From a phage: a stretch of DNA of 64,000 nucleotides. The stretch lies in the sequence record PZ445554.1. One strand, 5' to 3'. Position 1 is the stretch's first letter; each line of letters starts with the position of its first letter. This document shows, one piece after another, positions 26,618-38,367 of the stretch. The position numbers and the translations under genes are program-made. Under the pieces are notes generated by a model that was given only the letters and a program-made list of their open reading frames with translations, ran no database searches and was not told where the DNA came from.

Positions 26618-26799
26618 AAGGAATTTATATAATTAATAAGTTCTTGTTCTTTATTATCGAATTCTTTAGAAAGTTCTTCGTACTCGTTTGCACTAAAAGG
26701 ACCGCATTCATTACAAACTTTTTCCAATTCGCTATTTTTATCCATAACTTCGTGGATAAGAGAAAAGAGTTTGTCTTTTTGTTCTTTGCTTAGGCTCAT
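26614..26799 (-). CDS. hypothetical small acidic protein
   Basis: 61 aa; 4-nt overlap with previous ORF. Confidence 0.5.
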   Translation of the reverse strand: MSLSKEQKDKLFSLIHEVMDKNSELEKVCNECGPFSANEYEELSKEFDNKEQELINYINSL

Positions 26800-26969
26800 A
26801 TATTAATTTCCAGAAGTTTTAAAATAATTCGCTTTTGCTTAAATATTTCCATAGTTAAATGATCAGTATCTTTTTGACCAATTCCAATGGCAAAACCTTT
26901 ATTAGCAGCGAGTTCAATTAAATTATCAAGTTCACGTAACACTTCGTACTGTAACTCAGAACTATTCAT
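26796..26969 (-). CDS. putative small protein (57 aa)
   Basis: Hand-translated MNSSELQYEVLRELDNLIELAANKGFAIGIGQKD...; ATGA overlaps at both ends with neighbouring genes. Confidence 0.45.
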   Translation of the reverse strand: MNSSELQYEVLRELDNLIELAANKGFAIGIGQKDTDHLTMEIFKQKRIILKLLEINI

Positions 26970-27178
26970 TTCGGTTTACCTTCTTTAACGAAATCTGGAT
27001 AAGGATAAAATCCCGAATAAAATCCTTCACCTTTATGATTGATGCATCCTTTATTAGAACAATAGCACCAATAATCGAAATCACAAGCCATTTCATCGTT
27101 GCATAAAGCAAAAACAACCGGCCACTTACACTTTTCACAATGGGCATTTTTAAGAATACTAGTTTGGCTCATAACCAT
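26966..27178 (-). CDS. cysteine-rich small protein
   Basis: 70 aa with 8 Cys (CEKCKW...CNDEMACDFDYWCYCSNKGC). Confidence 0.5.
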   Translation of the reverse strand: MVMSQTSILKNAHCEKCKWPVVFALCNDEMACDFDYWCYCSNKGCINHKGEGFYSGFYPYPDFVKEGKPK

Positions 27179-27396
27179 GTCACCTTTAAGCAGTATTCTT
27201 CTACATGCTGTTTACGACCTTTCTTATCAATAAAGGTATATTCAACGAATGTTCCAATGTAGTCTTTATCTACATCATGTGGACTATTAATTGGACATTT
27301 AGTACGGCAAATGCGTTCCCATTGACGAATAATTACTGCCTTATTCTTTGGGTCATACGGATGTGGATAATGTATATTCATAATAACGGTTCCCAA
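27169..27396 (-). CDS. hypothetical protein
   Basis: 75-aa ORF. Confidence 0.45.
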   Translation of the reverse strand: MGTVIMNIHYPHPYDPKNKAVIIRQWERICRTKCPINSPHDVDKDYIGTFVEYTFIDKKGRKQHVEEYCLKVTWL

Positions 27397-27845
27397 TCAA
27401 CAATCACAATTTCTAATTTAGAGGAATATGTATCTAAAATCCCCTCAATAATATCCCAGTTCCCTTTACCTATGCCTGCACCAATCCTAGGCATATAGAT
27501 TGTAGGTTTAATCAGTTTATTTTCACCAAACTCATTTAATTCTAACATACAATTCATTAAAGCGGAATACTCAAAATTTGGCCCCGGTTGAAATTGAGTA
27601 TAAAGATTGAAGCAGTAAGCTTTATGAGTCCTAAAGTATTTTTCATAGACTGAGTAAGAACCGAGTTTAGTTACATCGCCCCATTCTGTCTGTAATTTAT
27701 CAGCTTCCAAAATTTTAGGGAAAGCTTTGGTTAATTGACCCGCTACGCCTGAACCCATAGTATGAAAACAATTGCATCCATGCGCAATATTTTTACCTTC
27801 AGCGAAAAGGGCGACAATATCGCCCTTGATATATTTTACAATCAT
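27378..27845 (-). CDS. macro domain protein (ADP-ribose binding/processing)
   Basis: 155 aa; GDIV...NIAHGCNC...GSGVAGQL and later PRIGAGIGKG match macro-domain motifs. Confidence 0.65.
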   Translation of the reverse strand: MIVKYIKGDIVALFAEGKNIAHGCNCFHTMGSGVAGQLTKAFPKILEADKLQTEWGDVTKLGSYSVYEKYFRTHKAYCFNLYTQFQPGPNFEYSALMNCMLELNEFGENKLIKPTIYMPRIGAGIGKGNWDIIEGILDTYSSKLEIVIVDWEPLL

Positions 27846-28189
27846 CTAGTACTCAATCCTCGATTATAAGAATCTACCAAACGGTCAACCATTGAATGAC
27901 AAGCGGCTTTATCTTTCTCCTCCGCAACTGAGCATTCTAAGGTATTCCACTTTTTAGCATATCGTTTTAATAATGTATCGTTTTTGTATCTGCTTGATTT
28001 ATCTCTTTCTCCGTCTTTATATGCATATATTAATTTCTGTGCAAATTCAGCTTGGCATGCTTTATTTTTCCCACAATAATCTGCCGCAGTGCGGTTTACA
28101 TATTCTCTAATTTCAGTATATGATGTATCTGCTGATGCAGAAGCAGAAAATGAAATTAATCCTATACATAAAACCAAAATTTTAGTCAT
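27842..28189 (-). CDS. secreted/periplasmic small protein
   Basis: 115 aa; N-terminal signal peptide MTKILVLCIGLISFSASASA; four Cys. Confidence 0.55.
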   Translation of the reverse strand: MTKILVLCIGLISFSASASADTSYTEIREYVNRTAADYCGKNKACQAEFAQKLIYAYKDGERDKSSRYKNDTLLKRYAKKWNTLECSVAEEKDKAACHSMVDRLVDSYNRGLSTR

Positions 28190-28727
28190 TTACTATTTCC
28201 AAAAGTTTATTATTTTTAAGGTAATTAGCCTTTTCTAGGACTTCAGAAGCATATTTAGAACCTGCTTTAACATTCCATCCCGAATTATAAGAGGATATTG
28301 CTTTTCTTATATCGCCCTTATGTATATTTAACCAATAAGAAAGTTCAATGTACGCCCAGGAAGCTGAATTGGATCGTTTATTCAACATTCTTTTTATTTC
28401 AGCATCAGTCATATTATAACCAAGTTCCTTAACTCTCGCTCGCATAGTAGGCAAATAATTTTGGAACATTCCATAAGCGTGATGCTTTGGTTTAGATTTT
28501 AAATTAACTCCGCCAGAGCTTTCTTGCCATAAAATGGCTGCCATTATATGACCTAATCCGCTCTTGTGGATATTTTTATGTGTTTTATATTTTCCATCCT
28601 TAGAAAATTGTTCCCCGAATTGATACGCGTAACGCATGTTATCGAGTTGGACATTACTGAAAGTATGCTCGGAGCTATGTGCCATCATTGAAATGGCCAA
28701 TAGACCAGCGAGTAGTGCTTTTCTCAT
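28182..28727 (-). CDS. secreted lytic transglycosylase-like protein (SLT domain)
   Basis: 181 aa; signal peptide MRKALLAGLLAISMMAHS; ES...GMFQ...YNSG motifs resembling family-1 lytic transglycosylases. Confidence 0.6.
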   Translation of the reverse strand: MRKALLAGLLAISMMAHSSEHTFSNVQLDNMRYAYQFGEQFSKDGKYKTHKNIHKSGLGHIMAAILWQESSGGVNLKSKPKHHAYGMFQNYLPTMRARVKELGYNMTDAEIKRMLNKRSNSASWAYIELSYWLNIHKGDIRKAISSYNSGWNVKAGSKYASEVLEKANYLKNNKLLEIVND

Positions 28728-32879: not shown

Positions 32880-33335
32880 TTAAAAGAGGTTGTTCATTAT
32901 TCGGTAAAGTGAAGGACCCATCACATATTGCCACTGAGTACGAGGAATAAGAGCAAAAGCATCCATCTCTGGAATCATAACGCCATCTTTATTTTCAAAA
33001 TAAGACTCACAATAGCAATTTCTGAACATCTCATGCTCTACTGGAATCGTATAATAAAATAACTGTAAGTCTTTATTACTAGAATATTTAAATACACCTA
33101 GGTCTTCTAGAAGGTCTGGATTATAATTGCTAAAACCAGTCTCTTCTAAGCATTCTCTTCGTGCTGCATCTAGTGCGCTTAAATCAGAATTTTCTACGCG
33201 GCCCTTTGGAATATCCCAACGATGTGCCATCATTCCAGGCTTACGAGAACCAGTAACCCGACCCATAAATAAATCTTTATCTTCTGTCATAAAGATAATA
33301 CCAGCTGATAATGTTTTCATTTTAATTTCCTGCAT
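32880..33335 (-). CDS. nudE: Nudix hydrolase
   Basis: 151 aa; Nudix box GRVENSDLSALDAARRECLEETG. Confidence 0.85.
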   Translation of the reverse strand: MQEIKMKTLSAGIIFMTEDKDLFMGRVTGSRKPGMMAHRWDIPKGRVENSDLSALDAARRECLEETGFSNYNPDLLEDLGVFKYSSNKDLQLFYYTIPVEHEMFRNCYCESYFENKDGVMIPEMDAFALIPRTQWQYVMGPSLYRIMNNLF

Positions 33336-37412: not shown

Positions 37413-37489
37413 TGGCCAGGGTGAAAGGATTCTAACCTTTAACCTGCGGTTTAGAGGACCGCTACTCTATACAATTGAGTTACACCCCG
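37413..37489 (-). tRNA. tRNA-Arg (anticodon TCT)
   Basis: Cloverleaf: acceptor CGGGGTG/CACCCTG, D-stem ACTC/GAGT, anticodon stem GCGGT/ACCGC loop CCTCTAA, T-arm AAAGG-TTAGAAT-CCTTT, CCA encoded; unusual C33. Confidence 0.6.
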
Positions 37490-37615
37490 TAATTAGTTCA
37501 CAGCAATACCTACTCCAACAATCAAGATGTCTTCACACGAAATTAAGAGAAGAGTGATCAGTTCAACCCCTATAATCGCGTCAAGTAGATATTAATGTGA
37601 CAACTGTCACAAGTT

Positions 37616-37690
37616 TGGCGGACGTGATAGGATTCGAACCTATAACCAATCGCTTAACAGGCGATCGCTCTGCCATTGAGCTACACATCC
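37616..37690 (-). tRNA. tRNA-Asn (anticodon GTT)
   Basis: Acceptor GGATGTG/CACGTCC, D-arm GCTC-AATGGCA-GAGC, anticodon loop CTGTTAA, T-arm ATAGG-TTCGAAT-CCTAT, GCCA 3' end. Confidence 0.7.
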
Positions 37691-37694
37691 AAAT

Positions 37695-37781
37695 TGGTGG
37701 GGAGTGGTGGAGTCGAACCACCCGAGTCGCAATGACAATGAATTTACAGTCCACACCGCTACCTCTACGGGATAACTCCCC
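37695..37781 (-). tRNA. tRNA-Tyr (anticodon GTA)
   Basis: Class II tRNA, long variable arm; acceptor GGGGAGT/ACTCCCC, anticodon loop CTGTAAA, T-arm GGTGG-TTCGACT-CCACC, CCA encoded. Confidence 0.6.
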
Positions 37782-37794
37782 CTAATTCGTAATT

Positions 37795-37869
37795 TGGTGA
37801 CCCTGGGTGGAATTGAACCACCATCTGGCGATTATGAGTCGCTTGCTTGAACCTTCCAGCTACAGGGCC
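37795..37869 (-). tRNA. tRNA-Ile (anticodon CAT, lysidine type)
   Basis: Anticodon stem-loop GCGACTCATAATCGC identical to E. coli tRNA-Ile2; acceptor GGCCCTG/CAGGGTC; T-arm GGTGG-TTCAATT-CCACC; CCA encoded. Confidence 0.65.
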
Positions 37870-37870
37870 T

Positions 37871-37946
37871 TGGTGCTGATTGACGGAATCGAACCGCCGA
37901 CGTCCTCATTACAAGTGAGGTGCTCTACCTACTGAGCTAAATCAGC
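37871..37946 (-). tRNA. tRNA-Thr (anticodon TGT)
   Basis: Acceptor GCTGATT/AATCAGC, D-arm GCTC-AGTAGGTA-GAGC, anticodon stem CCTCA/TGAGG loop CTTGTAA, T-loop TTCGATT, CCA encoded. Confidence 0.7.
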
Positions 37947-37951
37947 AAAAC

Positions 37952-38041
37952 TGGCGGAGGCGATAGGATTTGAACCTATGAGTCGCCGGAGCGACTGCCG
38001 GTTTTCAAGACCGGTGCATTAAACCACTCTGCCACGCCTCC
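37952..38041 (-). tRNA. tRNA-Ser (anticodon TGA)
   Basis: Class II; acceptor GGAGGCG/CGCCTCC, anticodon stem CCGGT/ACCGG loop CTTGAAA, long variable arm, T-arm ATAGG-TTCAAAT-CCTAT, CCA encoded. Confidence 0.7.
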
Positions 38042-38043
38042 AG

Positions 38044-38117
38044 TCTCCGTGGCAGGATTTGAACCTACGACATTCTGCTCCCAAAGCAGACGCTCTACCA
38101 AACTGAGCTACACGGAG
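38044..38117 (-). tRNA. tRNA-Pro (anticodon TGG)
   Basis: Acceptor CTCCGTG/CACGGAG, D-arm GCTC-AGTTTGGTA-GAGC, anticodon stem TCTGC/GCAGA loop TTTGGGA; CCA not encoded. Confidence 0.65.
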
Positions 38118-38127
38118 TAAATTAAAT

Positions 38128-38201
<74 letters not shown>

Positions 38202-38206
38202 AAATT

Positions 38207-38293
38207 TGGTGCGAGAAGTGGGACTCGAACCCACAAGGAAATCATTCCGCAGCATTTTAAGTGCTGTGCCTTTACCAATTTGACCATTCTCGC
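38207..38293 (-). tRNA. tRNA-Leu (anticodon TAA)
   Basis: Class II; GCGAGAATGGTCAAATTGGTAAAGGCACAGCACTTAAAATGCTGCGG...GGGTTCGAGTCCCACTTCTCGCACCA recognised as T4 tRNA-Leu. Confidence 0.8.
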
Positions 38294-38294
38294 G

Positions 38295-38367
38295 CTGGGA
38301 ATAAAGGACTCGAACCTTTGCATCCTGGAATCAAAATCCAGTGCCTTACCAACTTGGCTAATTCCCA
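38295..38367 (-). tRNA. tRNA-Gln (anticodon TTG)
   Basis: Acceptor TGGGAAT/ATTCCCA, anticodon stem CTGGA/TCCAG loop TTTTGAT, T-arm AAAGG-TTCGAGT-CCTTT; CCA not encoded; 1 nt from tRNA-Leu. Confidence 0.7.

Follow-up and report, generated by a model that had tools for sequence, protein, structure and literature searches.

Within the 64,000-nucleotide stretch of phage DNA that we analysed (the window), the minus-strand open reading frame at 27378..27845 is the T4-type gene tk.4, since renamed adfM (anti-DarT factor, macrodomain). We consider it probable that its product is a stand-alone macrodomain that protects the phage from the DarTG2 defence, most likely by hydrolysing thymidine-linked ADP-ribose (ADPr) in the manner of the Streptomyces coelicolor protein SCO6735. 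DarTG2 modifies thymidines in DNA with ADP-ribose and so prevents the phage from replicating. The function of tk.4 in escape from DarTG2 has already been published, in a preprint that is the source of the genetics (10.1101/2025.11.20.689424). Because that story has been told for an identical T4 protein, the gene adds no new system to the means by which T-even phages defeat DNA ADP-ribosylation, which are base-matched erasers: the NADAR-type enzyme AdfN for guanosine (DarTG1) and the macrodomain AdfM for thymidine (DarTG2). What is new here is the assignment of the T4 AdfM active site to a probable Gln type that resembles SCO6735 and is unlike those of DarG and of the AdfM of phage PhiKZ, the apparent independence of T4 AdfM from the Lys-type PhiKZ protein, and a wider family of stand-alone macrodomains that share a YTQ motif.

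The tk.4 gene and its role in escape from DarTG2

The reading frame runs from an ATG to a TGA codon and specifies 155 amino acids, exactly as described in an earlier account of the window that drew on its letters alone (hereafter the sequence-only reading). The product has a computed mass of 17.5 kDa and a computed pI of 5.9, and all 155 of its residues are identical to those of T4 Tk.4 (NP_049723). The genome that carries it is nevertheless not T4. The window belongs to a Tequatrovirus, with DNA 98.5-99.8% identical to Tequatrovirus genomes, and around tk.4 its nearest relatives are phages TadeuszReichstein (99.8% identity) and RB27 (99.3%), with T2 at 98.5%.

As in T4 and T2, tk.4 is flanked by vs, which encodes the valyl-tRNA synthetase modifier, and by tk.3, and in the records of both phages regB and vs.1 precede it and tk follows it. 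An ATGA at 27842..27845 (-) contains both the stop codon of vs and the start codon of tk.4, and a second ATGA, at 27378..27381 (-), joins the tk.4 stop to the tk.3 start, matching the annotation of T2 and T4; GGA/GAG bases resembling a Shine-Dalgarno sequence lie 8-14 nt upstream of the tk.4 start. The overlap with vs suggests translational coupling, and the presence of such overlaps at both ends of tk.4 points to a tightly packed, probably translationally coupled string of minus-strand genes. Tk.4 would be made as part of this regB-vs.1-vs-tk.4-tk.3-tk string. A scan for sigma-70-like promoters returned 22 sites compared with 22.7 in shuffled sequence, which is no excess, and we claim no promoter; with the scan as a whole at the shuffled level, a good TTTACT-17-TATAAT site does lie upstream of regB.

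Close to the start codon, over tk.4 codons 7-14, is a perfect inverted repeat (27807..27827; stem AAGGGCGA, 5-nt loop), which RNAfold folds into a 9-bp hairpin in the mRNA strand and which was scored as terminator-like in a scan of the opposite (+) strand. Since the repeat partly overlaps the codons for the conserved residues G8-D9, it may be incidental to coding. According to a RIL-seq preprint in which tk.4 is wrongly called a putative thymidine kinase, the T2 tk.4 transcript is contacted on Hfq by several sRNAs, the host's ArcZ among them, and in phage T2 the level of Tk.4 protein is unchanged in an arcZ deletion (10.64898/2026.06.19.733364).

The gene was sequenced earlier as 'ORF 60.5' in GenBank record X04567, the A1pp/macro match of its orthologues was reported in 2006 (PMC1524935), and the T4 record annotates Tk.4 as 'phosphatase; contains A1pp phosphatase motif'. 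The sequence-only reading, which correctly called a macro protein, missed that this is a named T4 gene, tk.4, with an A1pp/macro annotation dating from 2006 at the latest. A1pp is a historical domain name and not the result of an assay, and the label 'phosphatase' that many phage records attach to tk.4 is probably misleading. Elsewhere the gene is labelled 'hypothetical protein', 'macro domain protein' or, once, 'DNA binding protein', and several records carry clearly wrong names over the vs/regB region, such as 'putative baseplate hub protein' and 'terminase small subunit'.

Two published lines of genetics bear on its function. [quoted passage not shown] In the HIDEN-SEQ preprint of November 2025, a T4 transposon library was grown on a host expressing DarTG2, and tk.4 was the single significant T4 gene, with insertions in it lost specifically on that host (10.1101/2025.11.20.689424). 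A clean deletion of tk.4 makes T4 sensitive to DarTG2, and the gene is dispensable on plain E. coli K-12 and important only when DarTG2 is present (10.1101/2025.11.20.689424). As the window protein is identical to T4 Tk.4, this phenotype transfers directly to it, and it agrees with the suggestion in the sequence-only reading that a phage macrodomain could reverse a host defence based on ADP-ribosylation. The authors of the preprint noted a structural likeness to Mtb DarG and renamed the gene adfM, and wrote of enzymatic removal of ADP-ribose from DNA only that it 'seems likely' (10.1101/2025.11.20.689424). In the literature that we searched there was no biochemical assay of T4 Tk.4, and the reviews and the CmdTAC, AdfN and NADAR papers that we examined hold no data on the protein.

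Macro fold, conserved residues and relation to DarG

Profile, fold and motif conservation all uphold the macrodomain call. Tk.4 matches the Pfam Macro profile PF01661 above its gathering score (27.7 bits against 22; E 2.9e-6) over profile positions 2-113 of 118, and PHROG 335 at E 1.3e-65; its sequence matches in the PDB include BT1257, Poa1p, TARG1/OARD1, SCO6735 and the DarG macrodomains. An AlphaFold2 model built with 54 homologues (pLDDT 95.6, pTM 0.90) consists of alternating strand and helix elements in a three-layer alpha/beta macro fold. The model gave 133 matches to PDB structures at E<=0.001, and the 50 of these that were listed are all macrodomains or proteins engineered on a macro scaffold. 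In structure it lies closest to TARG1, DarG, Poa1p and SCO6735, and not to macrodomains of the MacroD, PARG or macroH2A types. By this model Tk.4 is a stand-alone macrodomain of the ALC1/TARG1 class, with a predicted fold of the kind found in TARG1, Poa1p and DarG.

The motifs from which the macrodomain had been recognised, GDIV (residues 8-11), GSGVAGQL (31-38) and GAGIGKG (122-128), are present in Tk.4, and both Gly-rich loops, MGSG and IGAGIGKG, are kept in an alignment of 54 family sequences from which all of our conservation counts derive. Fourteen residues are invariant in this alignment: G23, N25, C26, G33, A35, D49, N80, Y82, T83, Q84, P119, I121, G122 and G124. The N-terminal turn G8-D9-I10-V11 (27813..27824; this and the following features are on the minus strand) has Gly in 52 of the 54 sequences, followed by Asp or Asn in all of them. 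In the H22-G23-C24-N25-C26 motif (27768..27782), H22 is present in 53 of the 54. Alignments to Poa1p and DarG, with residue roles taken from PMC9411070 and PMC5179494, identify N25 as the near-universal macrodomain Asn, equivalent to DarG N22 and SCO6735 N27, and H22 as the equivalent of Poa1p H23 and SCO6735 H24. Gly-rich loop 1, G31-S32-G33-V34-A35-G36-Q37-L38 (27732..27755), which is predicted to bind phosphate, is without the Lys found there in DarG (MGKG, aligned as VMGKG). D49 (27699..27701) and, in the N80-L81-Y82-T83-Q84 signature (27594..27608), N80, Y82, T83 and Q84 are conserved in 54 of 54 sequences. The second predicted phosphate-binding loop, P119-R-I-G-A-G-I-G-K-G-N-W130 (27456..27491), keeps G128 and W130 in at least 90% of the family.

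It is the signature that most plainly separates Tk.4 from DarG, for which our comparators were the DarG or DarG2 proteins of Taq (5m31/5m3e), Mtb (5m3i) and T. africanus (7omu). Alignment with hhalign places NLYTQ84 of Tk.4 opposite NFPTK80 of Taq DarG, so that Gln84, like the Gln in every one of the 54 family members, replaces the catalytic Lys80 of the N-F-P-T-K motif; mutation of K80 inactivates DarG (PMC5179494). In a profile alignment YTQ84 likewise lies opposite LITK84 of TARG1, and Tk.4 is thus without the catalytic Lys of its usual comparators. Whereas DarG proteins are about 330-360 aa long, the 155-aa Tk.4 is without the C-terminal DarT-binding domain. It scores 30.3 bits against the NCBIfam DarG equivalog (cut-off 250), over positions 2-146 of 338, and 36 bits against the PADLOC DarG profile, over positions 2-145 of 329. 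There is also no darT gene beside tk.4, whose neighbours are vs and tk.3. Since three defining features fail, namely the catalytic Lys, the C-terminal domain together with the equivalog score, and the darT neighbour, we rejected a filing of Tk.4 as DarG.

The solved folds nearest to Tk.4 are those of human TARG1/OARD1, yeast Poa1p and Bacteroides BT1257 (2fg1/2afc). BT1257 is the best sequence match (profile E 4e-17) and, like Tk.4, has N...Q at the signature position. Poa1p shares the H-x-C-N-C motif, with H22 of Tk.4 aligned to its active-site His23 and T29 to Ser30; it differs in being an ADP-ribose-1''-phosphate phosphatase with Ser at the catalytic position, in the sequence FTSS where Tk.4 has YTQ. 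Unlike TARG1, with its Lys84/Asp125 dyad, Tk.4 has Q84 and G126, the latter at the position of the catalytic Asp125 (TARG1 GCGLDRLQW aligned to GaGiaggdW).

The name AdfM is also borne by gp104 of phage PhiKZ, a chimallivirus DarG2-like macrodomain that is imported into the phage nucleus and that removes DarT2-installed ADP-ribose from a TNTC oligonucleotide in vitro (Cell Reports 2026, PMC13309987). Tk.4 resembles gp104 in being a phage-encoded, stand-alone macrodomain that counters DarTG2, presumably with the same substrate. However, gp104 is truly DarG-like and belongs to the Lys type (E 9.4e-25 against Mtb DarG, an FPTK motif and 133 bits against PADLOC DarG), in contrast to the Gln-type Tk.4, and BLASTP between the two gives E 0.005 over only 23 aa. 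This difference of subfamily, taken with the minimal similarity, makes the two AdfM proteins look like independent recruitments for the same job.

A Gln-type active site and the proposed mechanism

SCO6735 (PDB 5e3b) provides a precedent for catalysis by a macrodomain with Gln at the critical position. This ALC1-like macrodomain, which stands alone, cleaves thymidine-linked ADPr on ssDNA efficiently and rescues DarT toxicity (PMC9411070). Where DarG and TARG1 have their catalytic Lys, SCO6735 has Gln85, and either Q85A or Q85E abolishes all activity; N27, which locks Gln85 in place, is also needed, and in the mechanism proposed by the authors water initiates the reaction and Gln85 serves to position the distal ribose (PMC9411070). 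Tk.4 is similarly stand-alone (both proteins are roughly 150-180 aa) and has no cognate DarT adjoining it, and it shares with SCO6735 the Gln at the catalytic-Lys position, the Asn (N27 in SCO6735, N25 in Tk.4), the His three positions ahead of that Asn (H24 and H22, respectively) and Gly-rich loop 2; it differs in being a phage gene product used as a counter-defence. Similarity between the two is low (E 3.3e-4 for the single sequence, 1.5e-13 for the Tk.4 profile), and the equivalence of Q84 and SCO6735 Q85 is transitive, by way of the DarG and TARG1 alignments and a statement in PMC9411070. On this transitive alignment, the Tk.4 active site appears to have the SCO6735-type Gln layout. The two lysines with which SCO6735 positions DNA, K34 in loop 1 and K89 after the Gln, would correspond to S32 and G88 of Tk.4 by numbering offset rather than by alignment, and on that footing appear to be missing from Tk.4; family members have Ala, Ser or Gly at the first of these positions and Gly at the second (52 of 54), and other basic residues could substitute for K34 and K89.

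In light of the SCO6735 precedent and the matching residues H22, N25 and Q84, we propose that Tk.4 is a Gln-dependent thymidine-ADPr DNA glycohydrolase. Upon infection, DarT2 attaches ADP-ribose to thymidines of TNTC motifs that are single-stranded in replicating DNA. Most likely, Tk.4 uses its two Gly-rich loops to bind the ADP-ribose and then hydrolyses the N-glycosidic bond between ribose and thymine, which would restore replicable DNA. Q84, probably held by N25, would orient the distal ribose, with water or the substrate assisting the chemistry, in contrast to the nucleophilic Lys of DarG and TARG1. A macrodomain by itself suffices as an antitoxin to DarT (PMC5179494). Several points speak against the proposal: Tk.4 is without the DarG catalytic Lys and apparently without the two DNA-positioning lysines of SCO6735, it is mildly acidic, with a pI of 5.9 compared with 9.0 for the Taq DarG macrodomain, and in both sequence and structure BT1257 and the phosphatase Poa1p match it better than DarG does.

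Protection could also come about without catalysis, if Tk.4 were to act as a stoichiometric mimic of the antitoxin by binding and inhibiting DarT2 or by capping ADP-ribosylated sites. Absence of the DarG catalytic Lys would suit such a role, as would the observation that dead SCO6735 Q85A inhibits DarT in vitro more than do DarG K80A or TARG1 K84A (PMC9411070). Other phage anti-DarT factors are described as having been found through escape mutants (PMC11825919), and AdfB has been called an antitoxin mimic (PMC11481870). However, Tk.4 has no counterpart of the C-terminal domain with which DarG binds DarT, and the isolated Taq DarG macrodomain carrying K80A failed to inhibit DarT (PMC5179494). 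Moreover, the residues invariant in the family are exactly those of the ADP-ribose pocket and the catalytic position, an enzyme-like pattern that is also held in bacterial relatives with no DarT nearby, and we regard a non-catalytic mode of protection as unlikely. We give equally little chance to a role for Tk.4 mainly on small ADP-ribose derivatives, with the DarTG2 phenotype secondary, which is what the 'phosphatase' label implies. Candidate substrates would be ADP-ribose-1''-phosphate, as for Poa1p, O-acetyl-ADP-ribose, or immune signals or toxins derived from ADPr. While its likeness to Poa1p and the wide spread of the family would fit with such a role, the Ser of Poa1p stands where Tk.4 has Gln, A1pp is a name inherited from the history of the domain, and the only phenotype reported is specific to DarTG2, tk.4 having been the single match in that screen. 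We also know of no Tpt1/KptA step of T4's own that would generate Appr-1''-p.

The sequence-only reading had raised a further idea, control of the phage's own ADP-ribosyltransferases, which we did not retain; that Tk.4 reverses or tunes ADP-ribosylation or RNAylation by Alt, ModA and ModB is very improbable. T4-like phages do encode three ADP-ribosyltransferases and an ADP-ribose-active Nudix enzyme, NudE, in the same region. Yet Alt, ModA and ModB modify arginine, whereas the closest characterised relatives of Tk.4 act on thymidine-DNA ADPr, Glu/Asp-protein ADPr or ADP-ribose-1''-phosphate, the TARG1/DarG/SCO6735 class having Glu/Asp esters and thymidine as its targets. The one arginine-specific macrodomain that we found in the literature searched is described as a Legionella effector (PMC10951314). 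In addition, tk.4 matters only with DarTG2 and can be dispensed with on plain E. coli K-12, and Tk.4 homologues occur in many phages and bacteria.

The YTQ family and other genes of the window

A search with tblastn identified a Tk.4 homologue in 2,751 of 50,697 phage records, including, by label or name, T4-like phages, rV5 and Escherichia/Salmonella phages of ~85-90 kb. The hosts of these phages range from Escherichia and Klebsiella to Pseudomonas, Vibrio and Bacillus. Bacterial relatives were found at at least 515 loci in a scan of one genome per species. Among the best 80 of these loci, identity is 33-43%, the YTQ motif is present in 71 of the 73 ORFs that were recognised, and most of the relatives are stand-alone proteins of about 150 aa. 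When we clustered 1,421 flanking ORFs from the 80 loci all against all, no family of neighbours recurred in more than eight loci, apart from an antisense-ORF artefact. Eight of ten neighbour families sampled have housekeeping-type Pfam domains (for example semialdehyde dehydrogenase, ABC-F, SecA and M23 peptidase), and the other two have no Pfam match. A DarT partner for the bacterial relatives was not upheld, there being no conserved toxin neighbour in the 80 loci. Given that most of the relatives at these loci are stand-alone, with no recurrent neighbour and no DarT among the neighbour families sampled, they look like a widespread orphan macrodomain similar to SCO6735, and not like a captured DarTG antitoxin.

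A bacterial origin for tk.4, to which its nearest 'bacterial MAG' homologues might have pointed, was rejected: both contigs examined (P0072 and P0118) proved to be DNA of T4-like phages, with genes for Rnl1, Pnk, a Dda-type helicase, spanin and dCMP deaminase.

A tentative joint reading, possible but on balance doubtful, is that the N-x-Y-T-Q proteins are a separate Gln-type clade of stand-alone macrodomains, spanning thousands of phages and hundreds of bacterial chromosomes without a toxin partner, and that T4 AdfM is SCO6735-like in mechanism and was recruited apart from PhiKZ AdfM. If this reading were true, AdfM may be a broad eraser of nucleic-acid ADPr, and perhaps also of Glu/Asp-linked ADPr on proteins, regardless of the transferase responsible, and could give protection from ADP-ribosylating defences beyond DarTG2.

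Several other genes of the window deserve mention. Based upon its position relative to the T4 map, the ORF at about 32880..33335 (-), some 5 kb upstream of tk.4 and oriented like it, should be nudE; NudE is annotated in T4 as a Nudix hydrolase whose substrates include ADP-ribose. Were this ORF nudE, the phage would encode, not far from tk.4, an enzyme that could degrade the free ADP-ribose released by a macrodomain hydrolase. Vs (27842..28189 (-)), classically a cytoplasmic modifier of valyl-tRNA synthetase, starts MTKILVLCIGLISFSASASA, an N-terminus that looks like a cleavable signal peptide, and the SLT transglycosylase-like Vs.1 (28182..28727 (-)) also has a signal-like N-terminus. In the HIDEN-SEQ experiments, vs was the most depleted T4 gene in minimal medium (10.1101/2025.11.20.689424).

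Between tk.2 and tk.3 lie two small ORFs, of 57 aa (26796..26969 (-)) and 70 aa (26966..27178 (-)), which correspond to the hypothetical proteins T2_114 and T2_115 of T2; T4 has neither, its tk.2 directly adjoining tk.3. Of the two products, the 70-aa one is rich in Cys (CEKC...C..C......C.C....C), a pattern that suggests a small zinc-binding protein. Finally, a cluster at 37413..38367 (-) contains 10 tRNA genes (Gln, Leu, Gly, Pro, Ser, Thr, Met(CAT), Tyr, Asn and Arg); T4 carries 8 tRNA genes. The gene with the CAT anticodon is probably the lysidine-modified tRNA-Ile of T-even phages.
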